Shown one piece after another: positions 5,943 through 56,626 of a stretch of 64,000 nt of DNA. The stretch's first letter is position 1. Each line of letters starts with the position of its first letter. Origin of the DNA: a virus; the IMG/VR virus record IMGVR_UViG_3300045988_140928, positions 64,001 to 128,000 of that record; one strand, given 5' to 3'. The notes below the pieces were generated by a model. That model saw only the letters and a list, made by a program, of their open reading frames with translations. It was not told the DNA's origin and ran no database searches. Both the position numbers and the translations under genes were made by a program.

Positions 5943-6136
5943 TCTTATCACCTGTAATGTAATATAGGGAATTAAACCTATACAAACAAAAAGATACAAA
6001 AGTGTAAAAGAAAAGCCCTAGCTCACAAATAGCATGAGTAGGACTTAGACTAGCCTTTAATGTACTTTGCAGGGATTTGTACTTACCCCTCGCAGTAGAT
6101 CCCGTAGGATTACTACCACTCTTATAATAGATTATA

Positions 6137-7192
6137 TCACAAATTACCAATCTTAGTAAGTCTCAAATTTCTAATTTGTAAAGTATAGGGATAGAATTTA
6201 CCATCATAAATATACTTTTTTTCAGTTCTTATAATCCAACTAGTACCTTTACCCAATGTTGTGTCATCTGGATCATATTTTATATCTTGAGTATATAAAG
6301 TCCAATTCTTATGGAGATAAAAAGTATTACGACTATCCTGATACCCAGAAGAACGATCATTCCAAGCAAACCAAAATGACTGTAAATAATCACTTGTCCG
6401 CTCTACATTAGAACGATACCAAAAAGATAAGCGATAAACACCTCTTGTAATAGACGTATCAATATTAGAATGGATTGCATCTACATAGGAGTCTGCTGTA
6501 TCACCAACCGCATCTTTAGATACAGTATAATCAGCATTATTATATCCTTGACCCCAAACAGAAACCCACGAACACCATGGAACATTATTCGTTATACCTA
6601 GAGCATAATTAGTAACATCAAGTATAGGGTTACGAACTATTTTAAAATTAGTTATCTTAACACTATCAACAGAAGCTTGAACATAGAAATTACTCGATAG
6701 TACCTCACCAAACTGCACCTTATCAATAGTGTAACTTTCAACCTGATGTTCTTTGCCACTTTCTTTATTCATATAAGTCCAGCAATCAATGTAATTATAA
6801 TTACTATTGGTAACACCATTAACATTTAATTCATATCCAATACGATCCTTACTAGAATTAATATCACTAGTAGGTTTAAAACCAGACCACTCAATATCAT
6901 AACTAATAGTAATCGTACTACGACCCTTCATAAAAAGTGAATTCAGTAGATCTGTATTCTGTTTAGCCGTTCTTGAACTAAATAAAGGAGTGGGCTTGCC
7001 AGAACTCATTAATAACATATCATCACTAGTATTACTAGGAAAACTAAACCCAGTAGTATCTAACTCAATAATATTTTTAGGGACAAGATCATTAATTAGG
7101 ATATTCATTTGATTAAACGTTAATTGATCTGTTATACCATAAGCATTTCTAAAACCATCTCCAAGAGAATTAAAAGTATCTTTTACAGTCAT
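6137..7192 (-). CDS. tail fibre / receptor-binding protein paralogue
   Basis: Has the conserved N-terminal module (MTVKDTFNSLGDGFRNAYGITDQLTFNQM), then a beta-rich C-terminus. AAGGGTGG SD. Confidence 0.65.
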   Translation of the reverse strand: MTVKDTFNSLGDGFRNAYGITDQLTFNQMNILINDLVPKNIIELDTTGFSFPSNTSDDMLLMSSGKPTPLFSSRTAKQNTDLLNSLFMKGRSTITISYDIEWSGFKPTSDINSSKDRIGYELNVNGVTNSNYNYIDCWTYMNKESGKEHQVESYTIDKVQFGEVLSSNFYVQASVDSVKITNFKIVRNPILDVTNYALGITNNVPWCSWVSVWGQGYNNADYTVSKDAVGDTADSYVDAIHSNIDTSITRGVYRLSFWYRSNVERTSDYLQSFWFAWNDRSSGYQDSRNTFYLHKNWTLYTQDIKYDPDDTTLGKGTSWIIRTEKKYIYDGKFYPYTLQIRNLRLTKIGNL

Positions 7193-18467: not shown

Positions 18468-20114
18468 TTACTTTTTTACTAAACCAAAAGGTTTTAAGTC
18501 TCCCACAGAAAAAATACCGAGTTCATACATAACTCTTAACATAACTTTTTGATGATCACATTGAAATTGTCCTTTTTTAGCTCTAGAGTCGTCATTAAAA
18601 TAAACATTACTCCAATCATAACCACCTGCGTCAGTCCTTATTGGATTAATAACTTTAGTATTAGGTCCCCAGTAGTCAGCACGATCAGTTATTTTTGAAA
18701 TAGCGTCTAAAGTCAAAGTCCCCCGACTTGCCGACATAATACCACCAATCAAAGGCCACATATCAAGGTTTGTATTCTGAACGTTCGCAGAATAACCATA
18801 GCCATAAATAGTTGCAAAGGTTCCATAATCAGGAATTTGTAACCCACAACCGTTATCAAACCAGATAGTCCAAGGAGTTGTAGTCCGATCTAAAGTATAT
18901 CCTGTAGGAGCATGGCGAACATTAGTCGCTTTTAGTGATTGAATCCACTGTGACTCAGTACCGTTAAAACCATTTGAAACAGCTAACTCATAAGCAGATC
19001 TTCCGTCTTTTCCAGTCTTCCCTGTAGGACCCTGTAAAGAAACTAAAACCTTACTAAAGTCCAAAGTTTCCGCTTCGTGGTCAATTTTAGCAACTTCAAC
19101 TAAGCTACCATTAGGTTGTAACAAATAATCTCCTACATTAGGTACCACATTAGAGTCAACTAATAAATCAGGGTAGCTAACAGAGGTTAAATTACCACCC
19201 AAAGTAAGTTTAGTTAAATATATTGAACGTCCTTGATCTCCTTTTGGTCCTTGCAATCCTCGTGGACCAGTTTTTCCAATAGAACCTTGAATACCTTGAG
19301 GCCCTTCTTCACCGTCAGCACCCTTAGGACCAACCGGACCTCGATCACCCTTAGAACCTTTAAGATAACTAAAGAAATCATCCTCCGTACCGGAATGACC
19401 ACTATTAAGCCAAACCTGATAAGCAGAAAGACCGTCAGAACCATCCTTACCAACAGAACCCTTATCTCCTTTGGGTCCAATAGGTCCTTGGTCTCCCTTA
19501 TCGCCCTTTGGACCTGCTGGACCCCGCTCACCTTGAGGACCAACCGGACCAATAGATCCGTCTTTACCATTTTCACCTCTAGGACCCTGTGGTCCAATTG
19601 GTCCTTGCTCACCCTTTGGTCCAGCAGGACCTATAGGACCAACACTACCAGTATCACCTTTGTCCCCTTTTGGTCCTTGTGGTCCAGCGGGTCCGGGAGG
19701 CCCTTGAACAGCAGTCGAACTACTAGACGCTATTTCCTTTCTAAGCTCATCAATAGTTATAGTACTAATTACCTTACCATTAACATTTTCAATATTATTA
19801 GCAAGATAAATACTCTTCGTACCATCATCAGGATAAATTGAATTCCTACCATTCTCGTCTGTTACCCACACCTCAAAATAGTAGTAATCAGATGGTAAGT
19901 CTTTAAACTGTTCACTACCAATATTAATTGCTTTATCCGTAACTTCACAGTCAACGTCTTTTAAGTAACCAGTTTTATTACCCATTTTTACAACAACGTT
20001 ATCACTATCGTTAAATGATACTTTATATCCTTGCTCATCCGTTAAGGTAAAGATATAAGTTCTACTTGTATCTCCCGATTTTTGCCAAATCGAATTTATA
20101 AATAAGTCTCTCAT
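18468..20114 (-). CDS. BppU-like baseplate/fibre protein with collagen stalk and C-terminal globular domain
   Basis: N-terminal Ig-like domain, then about 150 aa of G-X-Y, then a knob like those in 11553-13568, then a unique C-terminus. Confidence 0.75.
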
Positions 20115-24343: not shown

Positions 24344-25126
24344 TTAGTTTTTACTTTTAATTGCTTCTTTTGCTAAATCCATTAGCTTTCGATCTGGAGT
24401 AGTGTAAACAAATAATACGTTAGGGAAATCTGCTAATCGTCTAACAATATCTTCTAATAAATCTGCATTTTTAACTTTTTGCCCATCAGTTTTAAGAAAT
24501 CCGTTTTTAATCCAAGTAGCTAACCAGCTTTTTCTAGTAAAGATATTAATTAGGTACTGATTATTAGTTCTTATCAAAATATGTTTTCTTTTATTTCCTT
24601 TATAATCTTTAAGAAAATAGTCTAAAGCTTTAAGAGCTAATCTAGGAGTATTATCCATTGTAACTTTAGCTAACGACCTATTATTTTTCTTATCCTTATT
24701 ATGATTAATTGAATATGCAAAAGCACCATAAGACTTATTAGGTTTATATCCTAACAAAGCAACATTACAAGTGATATTAGTAGGAATAGATTCTACTACC
24801 TTTAAAGGGGCGTAATTAATATGTTTTAAACTCTTTAATTTTTGAGGTTTATTTCTACGTTTATAGTTATGAATGAATATTCCAGCCTGTCTTTTAGATC
24901 TGAACTTCCTAAAGACTGGATCAGGATAATTTAGAATTTCTTTTTCACATCTGTTCCAATTATTGTAAATCCCAGTATGCCACCCTTTAGCAACTGCATA
25001 ATAGTAACCATTATTAGAGCTATAATTATACCCATAATTATTTCTTTTCCTTCTTTTACGCTTTTTATTATTTTTGGACTTACTGCCGGACTTTCTGAAA
25101 AAGATCTCGTCAACATAATTTGTCAT
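24344..25126 (-). CDS. RNase H1-like protein with N-terminal hybrid-binding domain; catalytic residues look substituted
   Basis: YYAVAKGWHTGIYNNWNRCEKEILNYPDPVFRKFRSKRQAGIFI is the RNase H1 N-terminal domain. The C-terminus ..TNNQYLINIFTRKSWLATWIKNGFLKTDGQKVKNADLLEDI aligns to the E. coli TDSQY..W..W..GW.T..G..V.N.DL block, but TDS reads TNN. Start at ATG 25126 (AAGGAG SD). Confidence 0.6.
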   Translation of the reverse strand: MTNYVDEIFFRKSGSKSKNNKKRKRRKRNNYGYNYSSNNGYYYAVAKGWHTGIYNNWNRCEKEILNYPDPVFRKFRSKRQAGIFIHNYKRRNKPQKLKSLKHINYAPLKVVESIPTNITCNVALLGYKPNKSYGAFAYSINHNKDKKNNRSLAKVTMDNTPRLALKALDYFLKDYKGNKRKHILIRTNNQYLINIFTRKSWLATWIKNGFLKTDGQKVKNADLLEDIVRRLADFPNVLFVYTTPDRKLMDLAKEAIKSKN

Positions 25127-25639
25127 TATTACCACTCCTTATTCAAATTATCCATATGATAACTTCAAAAGTTGAAGAAGTAAATCACAAGTTCAATTAA
25201 TCGTCTCTTTTGACCTTTGTTAAATAATTCACAAGTACCTATAAAAATATAACTTATTATTTATTAGTAGTAAGCACTGAATCTATAACATTGAGCAATA
25301 TCTTATTTGTATTAAGACTAACTTTAGATAAGTAACTCTCCGTGTAATTTTAAACAATCTATTAATCTGAGTTAAATTATAACTTATTGTTACTTTTTTA
25401 CTGCTACTTAGATTATTCTTGGGGACGTACCTTTCCATCATAGGGAAAGGTAATTTCCCCAAACCCCTTTTGCCAAAGCTGTTAAATTCCAAGGAATTTA
25501 ATATTGTATATTTATTCTTAATTCTTATTTTTATACCTTAATTTTTTATTTCTTAAGTTAACATTATTTTTAATAATCTTAACTTAATTGATAAAGTAAT
25601 AATAAGGAATATGTTTAAATAAGATAATCTAAAGTATTG

Positions 25640-26890
25640 ATATTAAGTAAGACTAGTAATACCTTTCCAGAGGGAGTGAGAGAAGAATATTTATCCCTGT
25701 TGGTTTAGAGACAAATATAAGTTAAATATTGCAAGTATATAATAAGACTACTAGTAAGTATATACTAATAGCTTTAATATACAATTACAGATAATCAACT
25801 TATGACGAAAAGGTAAACCTTTCCATCAGTCGGTCGGTCATCATTAATCAATTTATTGACTATAGCAAGTCAAGCTATAGTCATGCGCTAAGCTTTTTAC
25901 ATTCCTGTTGTCATCCCAAGAATGCTTTGTCAAACAATGTTACTTGTTTAACAGAGGTAATGAATAGCACTCCCACAACTTTAACCTCATACACTGCTAG
26001 GTACCCTAAAGCACTGGGTATCAGGATTTTTCTATCTTTTCACATTGGTTTTTAATCTATGTATGAGTAGACTCGTTTTATTAATTGACATTTACAACCG
26101 TGTGCTAACTACTACCATAAGGATGTGAATCTTTTAAATTCGAGCATCTGAACCTTATGCTTCATTCTCAAGTGTGTATGTAAATTTTAATACTGTTGAC
26201 TAAAAAGCTTAGCTAAGAAATGACTTAACTAAGCTTTAAAGCACGAAATGATGTTCAATATCTCAATTAACAATTCTGCAATCTCAACAGAAGCTAACAA
26301 ATCAACCTCCAGACCGTTGGGTCGTGGCGTCATCCCACTCCAACACTACACGGCGAATCTGTCGCCAGATCCTTTTCCAGACCAGATTAATTTTGGTCCC
26401 CTCTTTGTAGCGAGTTCCCTCTGTGATATAAAGTGTGGTAAGGGCTACACCTAGTTGATAATTAACACCGGGATCTCACAACGACAATAGTGCTTATTGC
26501 CCCAGCTTGCCCCCTCTGCAAATCCACCTTCGTGAGGTTTCATCTTGTGGTGTCTTGTCTTATCGAGGACGGTTAGTAACATCTACTATACACCCCCGTG
26601 GAAAAGCTCTCCATGCCCTTTTCTCATTAGGCTGGCTTATGCTCCAATTTATATTTGTTTTTGGACTGATTTATTAGATCAATCAATAAACCGCCCTTAT
26701 ATTCAATAAAGAAATTTCAAGCGGATTGCTACTTGACTATCTTGTCTGGGAAACTTGATAGTCAAGCAACAACAATTGTCTTCTTGTTTAAGCTGTCCTA
26801 TTTCAGTCTAGGTGTATCCCGTTCCTATTTTAGGAAATAAGATTGAATCTTATTAAGACAAAGCTGTCATTTGCAGACAAATAGATTATA
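25640..26890. ncRNA. candidate large structured non-coding RNA (GOLLD/ROOL-like class?); strand and ends undetermined
   Basis: About 1.9 kb (25127-27024) has no credible ORF, and the centre is visibly GC-richer than the flanks. Local helices include GGCGA-atctg-TCGCC, a 10-bp CTTGACTATC/GATAGTCAAG, AATAAGAT/ATCTTATT and TTCCTA/TAGGAA. TGATATAAT (extended -10) lies on the minus strand at about 26890-26898. Confidence 0.4.
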
Positions 26891-27024
26891 TCATACTTTT
26901 ATCTACTAAAACCGTTTTGTAGTGAAAAAAAAATAAAAATTTCTTGCTATAAAATCAGCATTTGGGATTGAGTTTAGAGTTATAATTAAGTTATTAAATC
27001 TGAACAACGAAAAGGGAATAATTA

Positions 27025-37024: not shown

Positions 37025-38160
37025 TGAAAGCTTTAGTATGTGGAGACGTACACTTAACTAATTATGGAATGTTTAATGAACCAACAGATGATCCAGCAGT
37101 AGGTTCTCGTTTATCTTATATCTTAGAGGCGTTAGATGATTTCTTTACTTATGGTAAGGAAAATAACATTAATACATATATCATTAATGGAGACCTATTT
37201 GACTCCCGCCAAAGTGATAATCCAACTACGTTAGCTCATATCCGTAAGCATTTTATTACTAGTTTTAGAAACTTAACTAACCTTAATGGGGTTACGTTAT
37301 ATCTAAATTCTGGTAACCATGATCAACTTACCCGTAGCGTTACTCCAAACAGCCTAGAGGATTTTGAGCTATATTCTACTGATACTCATAAGATTAAAGT
37401 AATTAATGCAGTTACTCCTATTCAGGTAGATAACAATACTGAATTGTTCTTTGTTCCTTATGATGAGGATATTAAGAATACTAAAGAAGCTATTAAAGAT
37501 TATCTTTATAATCATCCTTTCAATGGCTCAGTTAATGTTTTCGCTCACTTAGGTGTAACAGGAGCTACCCAAGGACGCTGGAACCATCGTTTAGGGGGAT
37601 CATTTAACTTGGACGATTTAGGTTGGAATGCACCTAATGTAAAGTCAATTACTTTGTCACATTATCATACTCGCCAGAGTCTTAAAAAAGAGGGTACTAA
37701 AGACGCTTATTATATTGGTGACTTAACTGCTCTTAATTTTAATGATATTGGTAGCAATGGGTTAGGCGTATCTCGTGGATTTGATGAAATTGATTTAGAT
37801 ACAGGAGAGCATAAGTTTATTGACTTAACAGAAGCCCCTTATAATATCCCTACTTTTAATCAAATTAATTTAGATACAGATGATACTTTTGACTTAGCTA
37901 CACAAGTAGATGGTCATTCTTATTATAAGGTTAGTTGTAAGTCAAAAGATACTTATGAACGTCTATCTAAAGAATTAACAGATAATCCTATTGCTCCTCG
38001 TGTGCAATTAATCCTTTTGCCTCAAGAACAACGTGTTACAATTGATGTAGACGCTAATGCTACTGATACTGAATTAGTATCAAAATATTGTGATTTGAAT
38101 TATCCAGAAGTTAAGGATAAAGCATTAGACTACTTAAGAAAGGCAAAAGAAGCAGAGTGA
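37024..38160 (+). CDS. SbcD/Mre11-like metallophosphoesterase nuclease
   Basis: CGDVHL, NGDLFD and SGNHDQ motifs in the canonical order. Confidence 0.7.
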   Translation: MKALVCGDVHLTNYGMFNEPTDDPAVGSRLSYILEALDDFFTYGKENNINTYIINGDLFDSRQSDNPTTLAHIRKHFITSFRNLTNLNGVTLYLNSGNHDQLTRSVTPNSLEDFELYSTDTHKIKVINAVTPIQVDNNTELFFVPYDEDIKNTKEAIKDYLYNHPFNGSVNVFAHLGVTGATQGRWNHRLGGSFNLDDLGWNAPNVKSITLSHYHTRQSLKKEGTKDAYYIGDLTALNFNDIGSNGLGVSRGFDEIDLDTGEHKFIDLTEAPYNIPTFNQINLDTDDTFDLATQVDGHSYYKVSCKSKDTYERLSKELTDNPIAPRVQLILLPQEQRVTIDVDANATDTELVSKYCDLNYPEVKDKALDYLRKAKEAE

Positions 38161-39974
38161 TTACTTTAGAACTAGGAAACATTTTCGTTAAGTTAGTTTT
38201 TGAAAATGTGAATGATAAAACAATTGAATGGGTTTGGAGTCAAATACATACTACCTTTGATCCATTAGACCCTGAAAGATTTAGGAAACGCCTTTATAAC
38301 CTTCGGAAAAGTGACGGAAGTCGGGTATGGGATGGAAGAGTTAACTTATGTGAGGAGAAAGATCATTTAGTACCATTAGGGTTTTATGATAGATTAATGG
38401 TACTTATGAGAAGTATTGAACAATCTTCTGGAATTGTAGTTAAGGTAGTAGATAAACGAGGATTTGCTTTACACTTTGAACTTCCTCGGGAAGTGAATTT
38501 AGATGGTCATGGAAAAGAAAAAGATTTAACTTTGCGTGATTATCAATACGAAGCAGTACAGCAAGTTAATATTGAGCAATCTGGAATTATTCTAAACGCT
38601 GTGAACGCAGGTAAAACCGCATCTGCCGTCACTCTATTTAAATACTTATTACCTAAGATTAATGAGGGACAGCATTTACTTTTTATTGCCCCTAATAAGA
38701 GTATTATGAATCAGATCTACCTTAAATATCAGCACTATTTATCAGAAGATATTGTTGGTATCTGGGGTGATGGTAAAAAAGATATTAACCGTCCTATTAT
38801 CTGTGCTACTATTCAGACTTTATCTTCTGCAATTAAAGAGCCAAAGACTAAGCCTACCAGAAAGAGAGATAAGTTATTAGGTCGTTTTGCTGAACGCTAT
38901 GCACCTGCTATTTTAGAGTCTGGTGATCCTCGATCTAATCTTGAGTTATTAGCTAGGAATTTTCATCCTAACTATAAGTATGAACAAGACGATATTGAGG
39001 AATTACGTAATCTTTATATGAATTTACAAACATCTGATGATGTAAAGGATTACTTTGAGGGTGTACAAAAGCGTTATAAGAAATTACTTTATTCCTTAAA
39101 TGAAGAGGCTTATGAAAAGTATTATGATGCTATTGACCTCTTGAATAATACTAGAGCAGTAGTTTGTGATGAAGCTCATCGTGCTGGTGCAGAGTCTTAT
39201 TGGAAGGTATTTCATTACTTAACTAATGCAAGAGTTAAGGTAGGTCTAACGGGTACTTTAGATAAGACTAAGAAAATTAGTATGGCTCACATTCGTGGAT
39301 TGTTTGGAAAAGACTTAGTAAAAGTCACTAATAAACAGATGATTGAACGGGGCGTGTCTGCTAGACCTCATATTCGTTTAGTACCAATTGATAAGCCAAC
39401 AGATCTCGAACCTCGTATTCAAGCTACAATGATGGCTAAGGGCTATTCCCAGCTACCTACTGCTGATTTGATGTCTTATCAGATTGCATATGATCTAGGA
39501 GTAGTTCATAATGAGTACCGTAACCGTATTGTTGCTGAACTAGCTTATAAGGCTTCTTCTAAGCTAGATAAGCAAGCCGTGTTGATTATGGTTACATCTA
39601 TTGAGCACGGAGAATTGATTGGAGAACAATTAGATAAATTAGGTGCAGAATACCAATTTTTACAGGGTAAAGATAATAGTGATACCCGAGAAAAAGCAAT
39701 TGATGATATTGTTAGTGGTAAGCTTAAGATTGTAATTGCTACTAAGATTTTTGAAGCTGGGATTGATATTCCAAACTTAAAGGTACTAATCCTTTGTGAT
39801 GCCTTAAAGTCTTATATTTCTGTTATTCAAAAGATTGGACGTGTATTGCGGGTAATGCCTGATAAGCGAGACGTGTTTATCTTTGATATAGTAGATAGAA
39901 CACAAAACTCATTATTTAAACACGCCCAAGATCGGGTGAGGTATTATAGAGACGAAGGTTTTGAAGTTAAATAA
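38157..39974 (+). CDS. superfamily-2 DNA helicase (DEAH)
   Basis: AVNAGKTASA (Walker A), VCDEAHRAG, GLTGTL, ATKIFEAGIDIPNL and QKIGRVLR motifs. Confidence 0.8.
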   Translation: MITLELGNIFVKLVFENVNDKTIEWVWSQIHTTFDPLDPERFRKRLYNLRKSDGSRVWDGRVNLCEEKDHLVPLGFYDRLMVLMRSIEQSSGIVVKVVDKRGFALHFELPREVNLDGHGKEKDLTLRDYQYEAVQQVNIEQSGIILNAVNAGKTASAVTLFKYLLPKINEGQHLLFIAPNKSIMNQIYLKYQHYLSEDIVGIWGDGKKDINRPIICATIQTLSSAIKEPKTKPTRKRDKLLGRFAERYAPAILESGDPRSNLELLARNFHPNYKYEQDDIEELRNLYMNLQTSDDVKDYFEGVQKRYKKLLYSLNEEAYEKYYDAIDLLNNTRAVVCDEAHRAGAESYWKVFHYLTNARVKVGLTGTLDKTKKISMAHIRGLFGKDLVKVTNKQMIERGVSARPHIRLVPIDKPTDLEPRIQATMMAKGYSQLPTADLMSYQIAYDLGVVHNEYRNRIVAELAYKASSKLDKQAVLIMVTSIEHGELIGEQLDKLGAEYQFLQGKDNSDTREKAIDDIVSGKLKIVIATKIFEAGIDIPNLKVLILCDALKSYISVIQKIGRVLRVMPDKRDVFIFDIVDRTQNSLFKHAQDRVRYYRDEGFEVK

Positions 39975-53931: not shown

Positions 53932-54125
53932 TGTTAACAACACAAGCACGTTTAGCGATGAAGAACAAACAACCTGTTAGATTAGTCGGTGACTTATATA
54001 ATATCTTAGAGATTAAACATGTTAATGGTACAAAAAAGATGGTTGCTACAATTAAGAAAGTAGGGCTGGCAGAATATAGGTATAAGCCAATAGATGTCGA
54101 TGTTGATTATTTAGAACTAGCATAG
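53931..54125 (+). CDS. hypothetical protein
   Basis: 64 aa. Last gene of the plus-strand block. Confidence 0.5.
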   Translation: MLTTQARLAMKNKQPVRLVGDLYNILEIKHVNGTKKMVATIKKVGLAEYRYKPIDVDVDYLELA

Positions 54126-54158
54126 TCATGATTAGAGTTATAATGAATAGCATATTGG

Positions 54159-54200
54159 AGACCAAAAATTTTATGATCAGATTTTGGTCTTTTTTATTTT
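54159..54200 (+). terminator. rho-independent terminator ending the plus-strand block
   Basis: AGACCAAAA-loop-TTTTGGTCT followed by TTTTTATTTT. Confidence 0.7.
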
Positions 54201-54504
54201 GCTTTCTTATTCAAATTAACACATATTAAGAAGATGGGGGTGTACTATGGGAGCTATTGGTTATTGGTTATCAGTTCATGAATCGACAGTTCTTGAAACC
54301 AAGCCCTTTTTTATTTTTGGTAACTAATAAGATTAAGACTAAATAGTGTTCATGAATTGGTAGGAAACGTTAGAATTTACAAAATATTTTTCTTATGACC
54401 CTAGGCAGAAGAATTGACCACCCTGCCAGTACCTAGCCTTCAAGATTAACGGGGGTGAGGTCTTAACTACCTAACCTAGACACCGAAACCAGAAATCCTA
54501 CTCA

Positions 54505-54546
54505 GCAAAATAAAAAAGCTCCTTCGGTAAAATTACCAAGGGAGCT
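54505..54546 (-). terminator. rho-independent terminator ending the minus-strand early block
   Basis: Minus strand reads AGCTCCCTTGG-loop-CCGAAGGAGCT followed by TTTTTTATTTT. Confidence 0.7.
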
Positions 54547-54557
54547 AAAATCAAGTT

Positions 54558-54770
54558 TTAAATTAGATTAAATTTTAATTTTAAGAATAGGACAAGCAAG
54601 AATACAAACGCACCAGCAAAGCTGAATAGTATAGTACAAATACCAGCGCAAGCAGTCGAGTAGTCAATATTGAGTAGTTTAGCAGTAGTTTTACAAGTTA
54701 GCTCAAGCAAGCTAACCAAAGCACTAGCAAGCAAATAGAATAAGTTATAAACACCAATTAATAAAGTCAT
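54558..54770 (-). CDS. small membrane protein (2 TM)
   Basis: GAAAAGGAAG SD and its own consensus promoter. 70 aa. Confidence 0.6.
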   Translation of the reverse strand: MTLLIGVYNLFYLLASALVSLLELTCKTTAKLLNIDYSTACAGICTILFSFAGAFVFLLVLFLKLKFNLI

Positions 54771-54804
54771 TTTAATATACTTCCTTTTCTTTATCTTACA
54801 CCAT

Positions 54805-54833
54805 TATAATACAATAAGCATTTTATATTGTCA
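54805..54833 (-). promoter_or_regulatory. early sigma-A-type promoter
   Basis: Minus strand reads TTGACA-17 nt-TATTAT. Confidence 0.65.
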
Positions 54834-54853
54834 ATATATAATAATAAAAATAA

Positions 54854-56290
54854 AGCCTAATTATTTATATAACCTTAATTCTTTATATAAGCCATTCTGA
54901 TCCGTTTTAATCTAATAAGGTATAATTAACCATTAGCATATAAAAGCAAGCTGAGACAAGCTAACAGGCTTAAATAAGCATAGATTGAGTTAAATAGATA
55001 AGGATAAAGGGGATGAAATAAAATAATGTTGCAATTGCAACAATCCATCCACTGCATAGATAAGGTTAATACAAGGCTAGATAAATAAGACAATAAGCAA
55101 GCTAACTCAGACTAATAAGATAAACAATGTATTAGCTAATATTTAGCTTAGCTTGTTATATAGTAGCTAGAATAGCCCTAATTTCTGTTTTAAGCCGTTC
55201 TAAGGAGTTTTATCGTGGTTTAGGTATAATTTATCATTAAAGCACTTAAACGAGCTTATACGAGCTGATATAAAGAAATAGATTGAATAGATAAATAGTA
55301 GCTTGAATAAGACAAGGAATAAGGATATATCAGATAATACATAATAGATTAATACAGTATTAAGCTAGTCTTATATAAGCTAATACAAGTAGATAATAAG
55401 TTAATTATTAGGAAGCAAGCCTAGTTGTTAAATTGGTCTAATTTTTGTGAACGTTGATATAAAAGCATTTTTTATTTTGTAACCCTATGATTTTTTAACT
55501 CGAAAATAATTGGTCTATGTATTGACTATTTAAGCTATCTATGTTATTATAATATTGAAAGATAAATAGCACTAGCCCAGATAGCTGATAAGGGAAACAA
55601 GTTAATTTAACTTGTTGTTGATAGCTAGATATATTTAGAGTAGTAGATACTTTCTTAGAATTTAAGTATAGATCTCCCTCGAACCTATACATCCACCGTA
55701 TAGCCCTAATCAATTCAAGCTATATTCTGTCCTTAATGTTACAGCCCATTTTATTCAGTTGTTTAGCTAGTCTTATTATCGCTTCACTTCCTTTCCTTAT
55801 CTTTCAGTTATATTATAGCACAATGTTATCATTTTGACAACGGATTTATAGAAATAATTGGACCGATCCACTTGTTGAGAATGCTATTATGCCAGCCTTT
55901 ACAAGCCTTTTTTGCCCTTAAAATTTATCAACTGTTAAAATATTTTTATTAATTTATTTATATGTTTTTAGCTTCATTATGTATTGCCCCTATATAGCTA
56001 GTATTGAGTTGTTCTAGTTCTATATGGGGTTATTATTCTTCATTATTGTTATTAATAGTCTGCATTAGCTTATATTAGGCTTGTTTTGAACTTGTTTTAG
56101 TCTAATTAAGGCTTTTTATTGCTGTTTTTAAGTCTTTTATTAGGCTTTTTCTTGTTTTAGTTAGTGAAATTTGTCACTAATTCCTCTCTTTGCCCTTATC
56201 TTTTATATATAAAATATAAAGGGTAAAAACCCGTTAAACGCTGGTATTACAACGTTCCTTGTTTTTACCCTTATTTGTGAAATATTTAAC
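54854..56290. other. 1.4-kb ORF-free, repeat-rich spacer with a strand-composition switch
   Basis: The + strand is purine-rich over 54.94-55.48 kb and pyrimidine-rich over 55.9-56.2 kb. AGCC(C)TAAT-type words occur at 54854 and 55174 (+ orientation) and at 56074, 56105 and 56139 (inverted). Two degenerate units of about 320 bp lie at 54860-55170 and 55175-55480. Confidence 0.5.
55812..55840 (-). promoter_or_regulatory. orphan early-type promoter (no ORF downstream)
   Basis: Minus strand reads TTGTCA-17 nt-TATAAT with TGn. It is followed by a GGAAAGGAAG SD, but only GTG-AAG-CGA-TAA. Confidence 0.55.
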
Positions 56291-56299
56291 TTTTTTTCT

Positions 56300-56626
56300 T
56301 TATTTCTGAAATAGCTTGAATTCTTTATTCAATCGTTGTGTTAATTCAAACAATATACCAGATAACTTATTGTTTAATTCCTTGTATTCTGCATTATCAT
56401 ACTTTAACAAGGTAGAACTTAAATTGTGTAAATCTCGATAGTATACACTGTCAATATAATAAAGCTCGTCTTCTTTCACTAGTGCTAAATCACCTGTCTT
56501 TAAGTTATTATAGTTTTGACTAATATAATAGTTATTAGTGTTTTTAAAGTAATTAACCTTTACTTTGTCTTGATTGTTGTTAATTCCAATAACAGTTACT
56601 TCTTTCTGTTCCATTTCTTGTTTCAT
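56300..56626 (-). CDS. hypothetical early protein
   Basis: Start trimmed to MKQEMEQKE (AAGAGG SD). Confidence 0.6.
   Translation of the reverse strand: MKQEMEQKEVTVIGINNNQDKVKVNYFKNTNNYYISQNYNNLKTGDLALVKEDELYYIDSVYYRDLHNLSSTLLKYDNAEYKELNNKLSGILFELTQRLNKEFKLFQK

Follow-up and report, generated by a model that had tools for sequence, protein, structure and literature searches.

What is encoded in 1.9 kb of phage DNA that separates two diverging gene blocks and holds no evident gene? This question is raised by positions 25127–27024 of a stretch of 64,000 nucleotides (hereafter the window), which corresponds to positions 64,001 to 128,000 of IMG/VR record IMGVR_UViG_3300045988_140928. The source is an uncultured, Herelleviridae-like Lactobacillales phage of ~130–150 kb; a similarity search of GenBank phages and plasmids gave no match, and the phage has no close GenBank relative. 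The region is flanked by a leftward RNase H1-like gene and a rightward nrdH-like gene, and a sequence-only reading had suggested that it holds a giant structured RNA. Large structured RNAs of bacteria and phages, such as GOLLD, ROOL, OLE and the long non-coding RNAs (lncRNAs) of phage K, are few and their functions are largely unknown. From comparisons with related metagenomic loci, we conclude that the region is probably a new phage lncRNA locus that lies outside the known families. We favour an RNA gene because the region is non-coding, is constrained at the level of its nucleotides, and carries a conserved promoter together with a terminator in which the changes among relatives are compensatory or of the wobble type only. 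These features and a set of local hairpins bear out much of the sequence-only proposal, whereas a single giant global fold found no support.

The region is as free of genes as that reading had claimed. The longest open reading frames (ORFs) encode 69 amino acids (25283–25492, minus strand, TTG start) and 68 amino acids (26248–26454, plus strand), and a Pfam scan of six-frame translations of the region gave no signal (best E = 0.024). The G+C content per 100-nucleotide interval is 0.44–0.52 across 26250–26600, compared with a mean of 0.332 for the window. A G+C-rich core had been placed at 25.8–26.8 kb and described as the richest part of the window; such a stretch does exist, but it runs only from ~26250 to 26650, and coding DNA near 19300 also reaches 0.52. 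Further left, positions 25500–25640 are A+T-rich, with 12–28% G+C.

We gathered 21 related metagenomic loci by means of the nrdH-like and RNase H1-like proteins. All share ~140 bp upstream of the nrdH-like gene at 82–92% identity, and the similarity between lineages ends exactly at a leftward extended −10 element (Table 1). Beyond this putative promoter lie three discrete non-coding cassettes, which we call class A (6 loci), class B (9 loci) and class C (the window and 7 further loci, one of them identical to the window), in phages that are otherwise 85–95% identical. The class A and B cassettes (loci L001–L005, L008–L014 and L042–L044) resemble that of the window in their promoter, their position, their non-coding nature and their G+C-rich core, and each class has a core of ~400 nucleotides with 40–50% G+C. 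Class A is homologous to class B (nhmmer E ~1e-7). Indeed, a covariance model of the 3' domain of class B, R1, recovers class A with 25–28 bits (E of 2e-5 to 2e-4), and class A shows compensatory changes in two helices relative to the class-B model. Class C showed no similarity to A or B by blastn, nhmmer or the class-B covariance model; with filters off, the best match of R1 to the window scored 9.6 bits and fell in the RNase H promoter region, which is the wrong place. A likeness of class C to A and B that was seen by eye (TTATCAACTA and a GGACC...GGUY hairpin) was rejected by nhmmer and the covariance model, and no fourth class was found; L042–L044 fall in classes A and B.

The plus-strand ORFs of the cassettes start with TTG, have no ribosome-binding site and are unrelated between classes A and B. 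The set of RNase H genes changes with the type of cassette: class A and B phages carry two tandem RNase H-domain genes left of the cassette (L002 2770–4802, L010 1–1763 and L001 3387–4918) along with an extra gene, which encodes a protein of 192–201 amino acids in class B and a 365-amino-acid fusion in class A, whereas class-C phages have one RNase H1-like gene and ~1 kb more non-coding DNA. When the left-side genes of classes A and B were compared with the region by tblastn, the RNase H1-like gene was the sole match and no remnants were seen; together with the six-frame Pfam scan, this rules out a decayed protein gene. Motif scans of IMG/VR for more members returned five already known contigs and chance matches. 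An exact 20-mer from the core had no match in IMG/VR and a single chance match in a Chloroflexia genome of 62% G+C. The nearest cultured relatives, the Tybeckvirus and Watanabevirus phages of L. brevis, are not syntenic at the locus and offer no comparable region, because their nrdH homologue lies inside a co-directional gene block. In one IMG/VR relative (L005, 143 kb), the nrdH-like frame at 6001–6258 holds four stop codons, which may reflect either a pseudogene with a frameshift or an error of assembly.

We measured constraint as the share of variable columns in an alignment of seven class-C sequences, which are 88–99% identical overall. The sequence-only reading had asked whether relatives would show conservation without a coding signal, and they do: only 4.1% of the columns of the core vary, and no Pfam signal accompanies this. 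By the same measure, the RNase H1-like coding sequence is 22.4% variable (38% at codon position 3 and 10% at position 2), the nrdH-like coding sequence 14.7% (29% and 5.8%, respectively) and the A+T-rich spacers 24–31%. The difference between the core and the RNase H1-like coding sequence is highly significant (Fisher p = 3e-18), as is that between the whole promoter-to-terminator unit, with 7.4% of columns variable, and the 22.4% of the adjacent coding sequence (Fisher p = 5e-16). A second conserved non-coding block further left (block 2) is 5.2% variable. Each cassette is more conserved than the second codon positions of the neighbouring genes, and in classes A and B diversity likewise dips over the cassettes. 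The few substitutions in the core share the lineage pattern of the flanks, which argues for purifying selection and not for a recent sweep.

The constrained unit begins at a predicted promoter and ends at a predicted terminator. The leftward extended −10 noted by the sequence-only reading is present on the minus strand and is kept in every relative found, reading TGATATAAT or TGATATACT in all 21 related loci. The window holds 12 occurrences of TGnTATAAT, several of them just upstream of co-oriented genes, and the 14-nucleotide string TGATATAATCTATT is common to the promoter at 26885 and to a promoter-like, gene-proximal site at 6131 on the minus strand. On the opposite strand, the block TGCTATAAA, presumably the promoter of the nrdH-like gene, is invariant across classes A, B and C. 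The terminator lies ~680 nucleotides downstream of the leftward promoter and has the form expected of a Rho-independent terminator, with a stable hairpin (−16.2 kcal/mol) followed directly by a U-tract on the transcribed strand. The changes that it shows across the relatives, one G-C to C-G swap and four of the wobble type, all keep pairing on the minus strand; three of them would be A-C mismatches if read on the plus strand. A clear intrinsic terminator was looked for in the class A and B cassettes and was not found. Furthermore, the RNase H1-like gene has a promoter of its own, TTTACT-N17-TATYAT, which is kept in all class-C relatives and is followed by the ribosome-binding site AAGGAG. For this reason, the cassette is not simply the leader of that gene.

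Table 1. Positions of the features discussed in the text (an empty strand cell marks features given without a strand).
Feature	Position	Strand	Remarks
RNase H1-like gene	24344–25126	−	hybrid-binding domain PF01693 (E = 1.6e-13) and divergent RNase H domain
RNase H1-like gene promoter (predicted)	25156–25184	−	TTTACT, 17-nt spacer, TATCAT
Strong hairpin from ACCTTTCC/GGAAAGGT	25421–25459		39 nt; conserved
Palindrome AAATTCCAAGGAATTT	25484–25499		perfect, 16 nt; conserved
Block 2, second conserved non-coding block	25640–26040	−	downstream of terminator
Block 2 hairpin, long, A+U-rich	25719–25801	−	
Block 2 hairpin	25802–25829	−	
Block 2 hairpin	25857–25883	−	
Proposed primary non-coding RNA, ~680 nt	26200–26878	−	predicted start to terminator
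Intrinsic terminator (predicted)	26202–26237	−	14-bp hairpin (arms 26224–26237 and 26204–26217), then U5–U6
G+C-rich core, nearly invariant	26250–26639	−	390 nt; 16/390 columns vary (4.1%)
Candidate long-range helix closing core domain	26611–26616 with 26348–26353	−	states C-G, U-G, U-A
Helix GGCGA/TCGCC	26352–26366		
Hairpin GGAUCUG-GCGA-CAGAUUC	26355–26372	−	GNRA-type loop
Helix GACCA/TGGTC	26380–26398		
Long hairpin H8	26726–26772	−	contains the earlier-noted 10-bp helix
Helix CTTGACTATC/GATAGTCAAG	26732–26766		actual arms 16 nt: 26726–26741, 26757–26772
Helix TTCCTA/TAGGAA	26822–26836		
Helix AATAAGAT/ATCTTATT	26836–26854		
Leftward extended −10 TGATATAAT (predicted promoter)	26885–26893	−	predicted start ~26878
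Rightward promoter-like TGCTATAAA of nrdH-like gene	26944–26952	+	back to back with leftward promoter
nrdH-like gene	27025–27285	+	thioredoxin fold; protein cluster of 146 members

The short helices listed by the sequence-only reading were all found, within a few bases of where it had placed them. The letters of the GGCGA/TCGCC helix are present, but a better pairing is made by the hairpin at 26355–26372, which in four relatives shows a two-sided, compensatory G-C to A-U change as well as a G-U to A-U change. In the long hairpin H8, one pair appears among the relatives as G-C, G-U or A-U and another as U-G or C-G, all of which can pair on the minus strand. A helix that would close the core domain is weakly suggested by a single variable pair in a structure fitted to the alignment. 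In block 2, the four variable pairs of the hairpin at 25857–25883 can all be accommodated by wobble pairing on the minus strand. The best-supported helices further include 25965–25970 with 25885–25890 and 26153–26159 with 26116–26122. The consensus fold of 26190–26878 has four pairs changed on both sides, compared with 0–1 in slid controls, and 4 of 500 shuffles attained its covariation score; for the fold of 25600–26194, five pairs changed on both sides (again 0–1 in slid controls), and none of 500 shuffles attained the score. Over the whole 1.3 kb, the plus strand loses more of the pairs predicted from the window sequence to substitutions than the minus strand does (p = 0.02–0.04). Two candidate long-range pairings, 26808–26825 with 26437–26454 and 26857–26880 with 25908–25931, were contradicted by disruptive substitutions in relatives. 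In these models, covariation supports the local minus-strand hairpins and a few long-range helices and does not support a single giant global fold. On the question of covariation, which the sequence-only reading had raised, the relatives favour local hairpins on the minus strand, but the fold predicted from the window sequence alone did no better than the null.

Could the locus belong to one of the known families of large RNAs? The Rfam 15 models, run with cmscan over the whole window at the gathering score, found only tRNAs, and a permissive scan of 24900–27300 at E ≤ 10 returned nothing meaningful. The sequence-only reading had brought up the large RNAs of Lactobacillales phages, but GOLLD (RF01998), ROOL (RF03087), HEARO (RF02033) and OLE (RF01071) had no match even at that threshold, and the equivalent regions of sister phages were equally negative in Rfam, GOLLD and ROOL included. 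These four families are thus excluded as far as covariance models can see. HEARO would also require an adjacent IscB/HNH gene, and the neighbours here are the RNase H1-like and nrdH-like genes; a TnpB gene at 29763–30932 sits 2.7 kb away, beyond five other genes. GOLLD and ROOL are large (~600–800 nucleotides), hairpin-rich non-coding RNAs of Firmicutes phages and prophages, often found near tRNA genes, and the locus is like them in size class, richness in hairpins and phage setting. They have a conserved multi-domain architecture and form oligomeric assemblies (PMC12286853). At the window locus, known here from sequence, there is no sign of such multi-domain or oligomeric features.

The closest parallel that we found is in Staphylococcus phage K and other Kayvirus phages (Herelleviridae); RNA-seq of phage K revealed two abundant lncRNAs, lnc001 and lnc002 (PMC9241854; reviewed in PMC10383478). 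The second of these, lnc002 (37679–38832, minus strand), is expressed from an early promoter of its own; it precedes the genes for tRNAs, holin, endolysin and RNase H, and a point where gene blocks diverge is close by (PMC9241854). Like the phage K lncRNAs, the window locus belongs to a phage of this family and comprises an ORF-free leftward unit of 0.6–1.15 kb; the sigma-A-type promoter of the phage K RNAs has a candidate counterpart here in the conserved extended −10. The gene order also agrees with a phage K-type locus, that is, an ORF-free unit in a Herelleviridae genome that shares its strand with the tRNA, lysis and RNase H genes: the leftward block left of the region includes tail fibres, an endolysin, two tRNAs and a LysM protein, and the rightward block includes a PgpA-like gene, TnpB, a helicase and a DNA polymerase. 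The positions differ in detail. Phage K lnc002 is immediately adjacent to the tRNAs and ~2 kb away from the divergence point, whereas the window locus is at the divergence point, with the RNase H1-like and LysM genes between it and the tRNAs. Expression, moreover, is demonstrated for phage K and predicted for the window locus. There is no sequence similarity between cassettes A, B or C and the phage K lnc regions by nhmmer (E ≥ 5.9). In Rfam, the phage K lncRNAs are not GOLLD or ROOL either; the lnc001 region (L041 1133–1269; NC_005880 13632–13768, minus strand) matches the DUF3800-I RNA with 43.4 bits, just under the gathering score of 44.2 (E = 2.8e-4).

We propose that host sigma-A RNA polymerase would start at the extended −10 and proceed leftward, and that most transcripts would stop near 26200, giving an RNA of ~680 nucleotides that includes the 390-nucleotide G+C-rich core. 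Block 2, from 26040 to 25640, would be added by read-through or from an unrecognised promoter, and the full unit may be ~1.2 kb long. Since a conserved promoter of its own serves the RNase H1-like gene, the product would work as an RNA and would not be the leader of that gene. In close relatives, the same promoter would be followed by any one of three alternative non-coding cassettes. The alternative cassettes, the constraint within each class and the cassette-linked sets of RNase H genes suggest a lineage- or host-dependent role. That the locus is transcribed, where exactly the RNA ends, that it acts in trans and what it does in the cell are all points that we infer. A search for antisense targets elsewhere in the window gave only matches of chance length. 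The locus amounts to a natural experiment, with one promoter and three cassettes, each of which comes with its own set of RNase H genes; should the transcript be confirmed, exchanging cassettes between sister phages could be used to probe the function of the RNA and the involvement of RNase H1 and RNA-DNA hybrids.

Several points weigh against an RNA gene or limit how far it can be pressed. It is known from seven sequences, and its transcript is a predicted one. The stretch 26195–26878 (684 nucleotides) is more stably folded than its dinucleotide shuffles (20 per strand), but equally so on either strand, with minimum free energy z-scores of −3.7 (minus) and −3.6 (plus). In the fold obtained from the window sequence alone, 12 pairs survived one-sided changes and 16 were broken by them, while ~16.5 would be kept under the null, and over the whole 1.3 kb the minus strand of this fold likewise matches the null. 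Nor is there a significant difference between the consensus folds of the two strands in pairs kept and broken. These consensus structures were fitted to the same alignments that scored them, and the covariation tests have little power because there are only seven class-C sequences, of which 4–5 are distinct. The core is so nearly invariant that it provides no evidence either way on its own fold. Block 2 has no recognisable promoter of its own, despite its position beyond a strong terminator. Strong conservation could equally reflect a function at the DNA level, and a 43-amino-acid ORF on the minus strand (26451–26582), with a G-rich stretch 10 nucleotides upstream, may encode a micro-protein.

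A bolder form of the RNA-gene reading would make the locus a swappable module of Herelleviridae-like phages of lactic acid bacteria, in which unrelated large structured RNAs (0.5–1.3 kb) behind a fixed promoter are co-inherited with matching RNase H1-type genes and act through an RNA-DNA hybrid. We consider this unlikely. If it were true, the module could set replication-origin specificity or provide RNA-based counter-defence, and in either case would constitute a new class of phage RNA system.

The RNase H connection also bears on a different explanation, to which we assign a similarly low probability, namely that the region is a replication origin activated by transcription. Here a G-rich transcript would form an R-loop with the C-rich template, the RNase H1-type enzyme of the neighbouring gene would make the primer from it, and the A+T-rich DNA at 25500–25640 would unwind. 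The RNA II primer of ColE1 and the origins of T4 and T7 are transcription-activated origins, and the locus resembles them in its predicted promoter, its predicted structured transcript of several hundred nucleotides, the adjoining A+T-rich DNA, the link to RNase H and the existence of lineage-specific variants that do not cross-align. Transcription diverges at the region, the cumulative GC skew has its minimum there, and the region heads the replication module (nrdH-like gene, helicase and DNA polymerase), although the sign of the skew is that of all leftward genes and is therefore unspecific. The neighbouring gene combines the RNA/DNA-hybrid-binding domain PF01693 with an RNase H-like domain, the C-terminal half of its product being similar to phage RNase HI, and each cassette class has its own set of RNase H genes; however, an RNase H gene occurs in the same general neighbourhood in phage K, so that the adjacency may be inherited gene order. 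The sense strand of the RNA has more G than C, with several G4–G5 runs, and the order of promoter, conserved G+C-rich block and A+T-rich variable block recurs in classes A and B. Unlike ColE1, T4 and T7, the window unit has an internal terminator under selection, and its RNase H is phage-encoded, of the H1 type and equipped with a hybrid-binding domain. The terminator is strong, shows compensatory changes and stands between the promoter and the A+T-rich DNA, where a primer would not be expected to stop. In addition, we looked for iterons and tandem repeats and found none, and wobble-type substitutions suit an RNA hairpin and not a DNA site. A transcription-primed origin, if this is what the region is, would be among the first defined for this phage family.

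Quite unlikely, in our judgement, is a cis-acting leader or attenuator of the leftward operon (RNase H1-like, LysM, tRNAs and endolysin), with the site at 26885 as the early promoter of the entire operon and the structured region with its terminator setting the level of read-through, for example by phage-directed antitermination, or a precursor that is processed. The promoter, the terminator and the co-oriented genes are all on one strand, as this explanation would have it, and the existence of block 2 beyond the terminator without a recognisable promoter implies read-through. Block 2 also contains, at 25887–25899, a 13-nucleotide perfect complement of 26201–26213 (the 3' arm of the terminator with its U-tract); since this element lies 300 nucleotides downstream of the terminator, it cannot act during transcription, and no competing anti-terminator is seen upstream. 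Moreover, the RNase H1-like gene has its own promoter and ribosome-binding site, a leader of 1.75 kb would be extraordinary, and variability across the locus is highest between block 2 and the gene (24–31% of columns).

It is also very unlikely that the region acts purely as DNA, whether as a set of protein-binding sites or as a regulatory or recombination region made uniform by recent exchange, with no functional RNA. The recurring motif ACCTTTCC, noted by the sequence-only reading, is indeed enriched and clustered: where 1.9 copies would be expected, the window has 6, and 4 of these fall within 25429–25824. Two perfect or near-perfect palindromes are also present. The palindrome AAATTCCAAGGAATTT and the hairpin at 25421–25459 could be protein-binding sites or RNA hairpins, and 25415–25499, with 8% of columns variable in the class-C alignment, forms an island inside otherwise variable A+T-rich DNA. 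Discrete cassettes without intermediates indicate recombinational exchange, and the matching free-energy scores of the two strands also speak for this view. Against this, the substitutions in the core follow the lineages of the flanks, as expected from vertical descent under constraint, and protein-binding sites would not account for 390 contiguous, nearly invariant bases. The constraint starts right at the conserved promoter and takes in the terminator, and the wobble-only changes in hairpins are specific to one strand. Finally, that the function lies in one or more micro-proteins is most improbable, for although the 43-amino-acid ORF is intact in 7/7 class-C sequences and has its G-rich stretch 10 nucleotides before the ATG, conservation runs well past it on both sides, the sole substitution within it is non-synonymous (Gly to Arg), it gives no Pfam signal, its 48% G+C is atypical of coding sequence in this part of the phage, and the ORFs of class A cassettes have no conserved counterparts in those of class B.

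A few further features of the window were recorded beside the locus. The TnpB (IS605 OrfB) gene mentioned above is complete, is encoded on the plus strand within the replication arm, matches PF07282, PF01385 and PF12323, and is also present in the relative L014. Downstream of it, Rfam reports two tRNA-like matches, at 31093–31150 and 31519–31577 (31.8 and 43.9 bits), neither of which is called by ARAGORN; these could be part of a guide (omega) RNA or degenerate tRNAs. A second ORF-poor stretch, with no ORF longer than 72 amino acids and a G+C content of 0.23–0.38, is found at 54125–56300, where the direction of transcription changes, and has TGnTATAAT sites at 55812 (minus strand) and 56946 (plus strand). 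The PgpA-like gene of the rightward block (28007–28486, plus strand) encodes a homologue of phosphatidylglycerophosphatase A, others of which occur in phages of Lactobacillus, Listeria, Leuconostoc and Bacillus.

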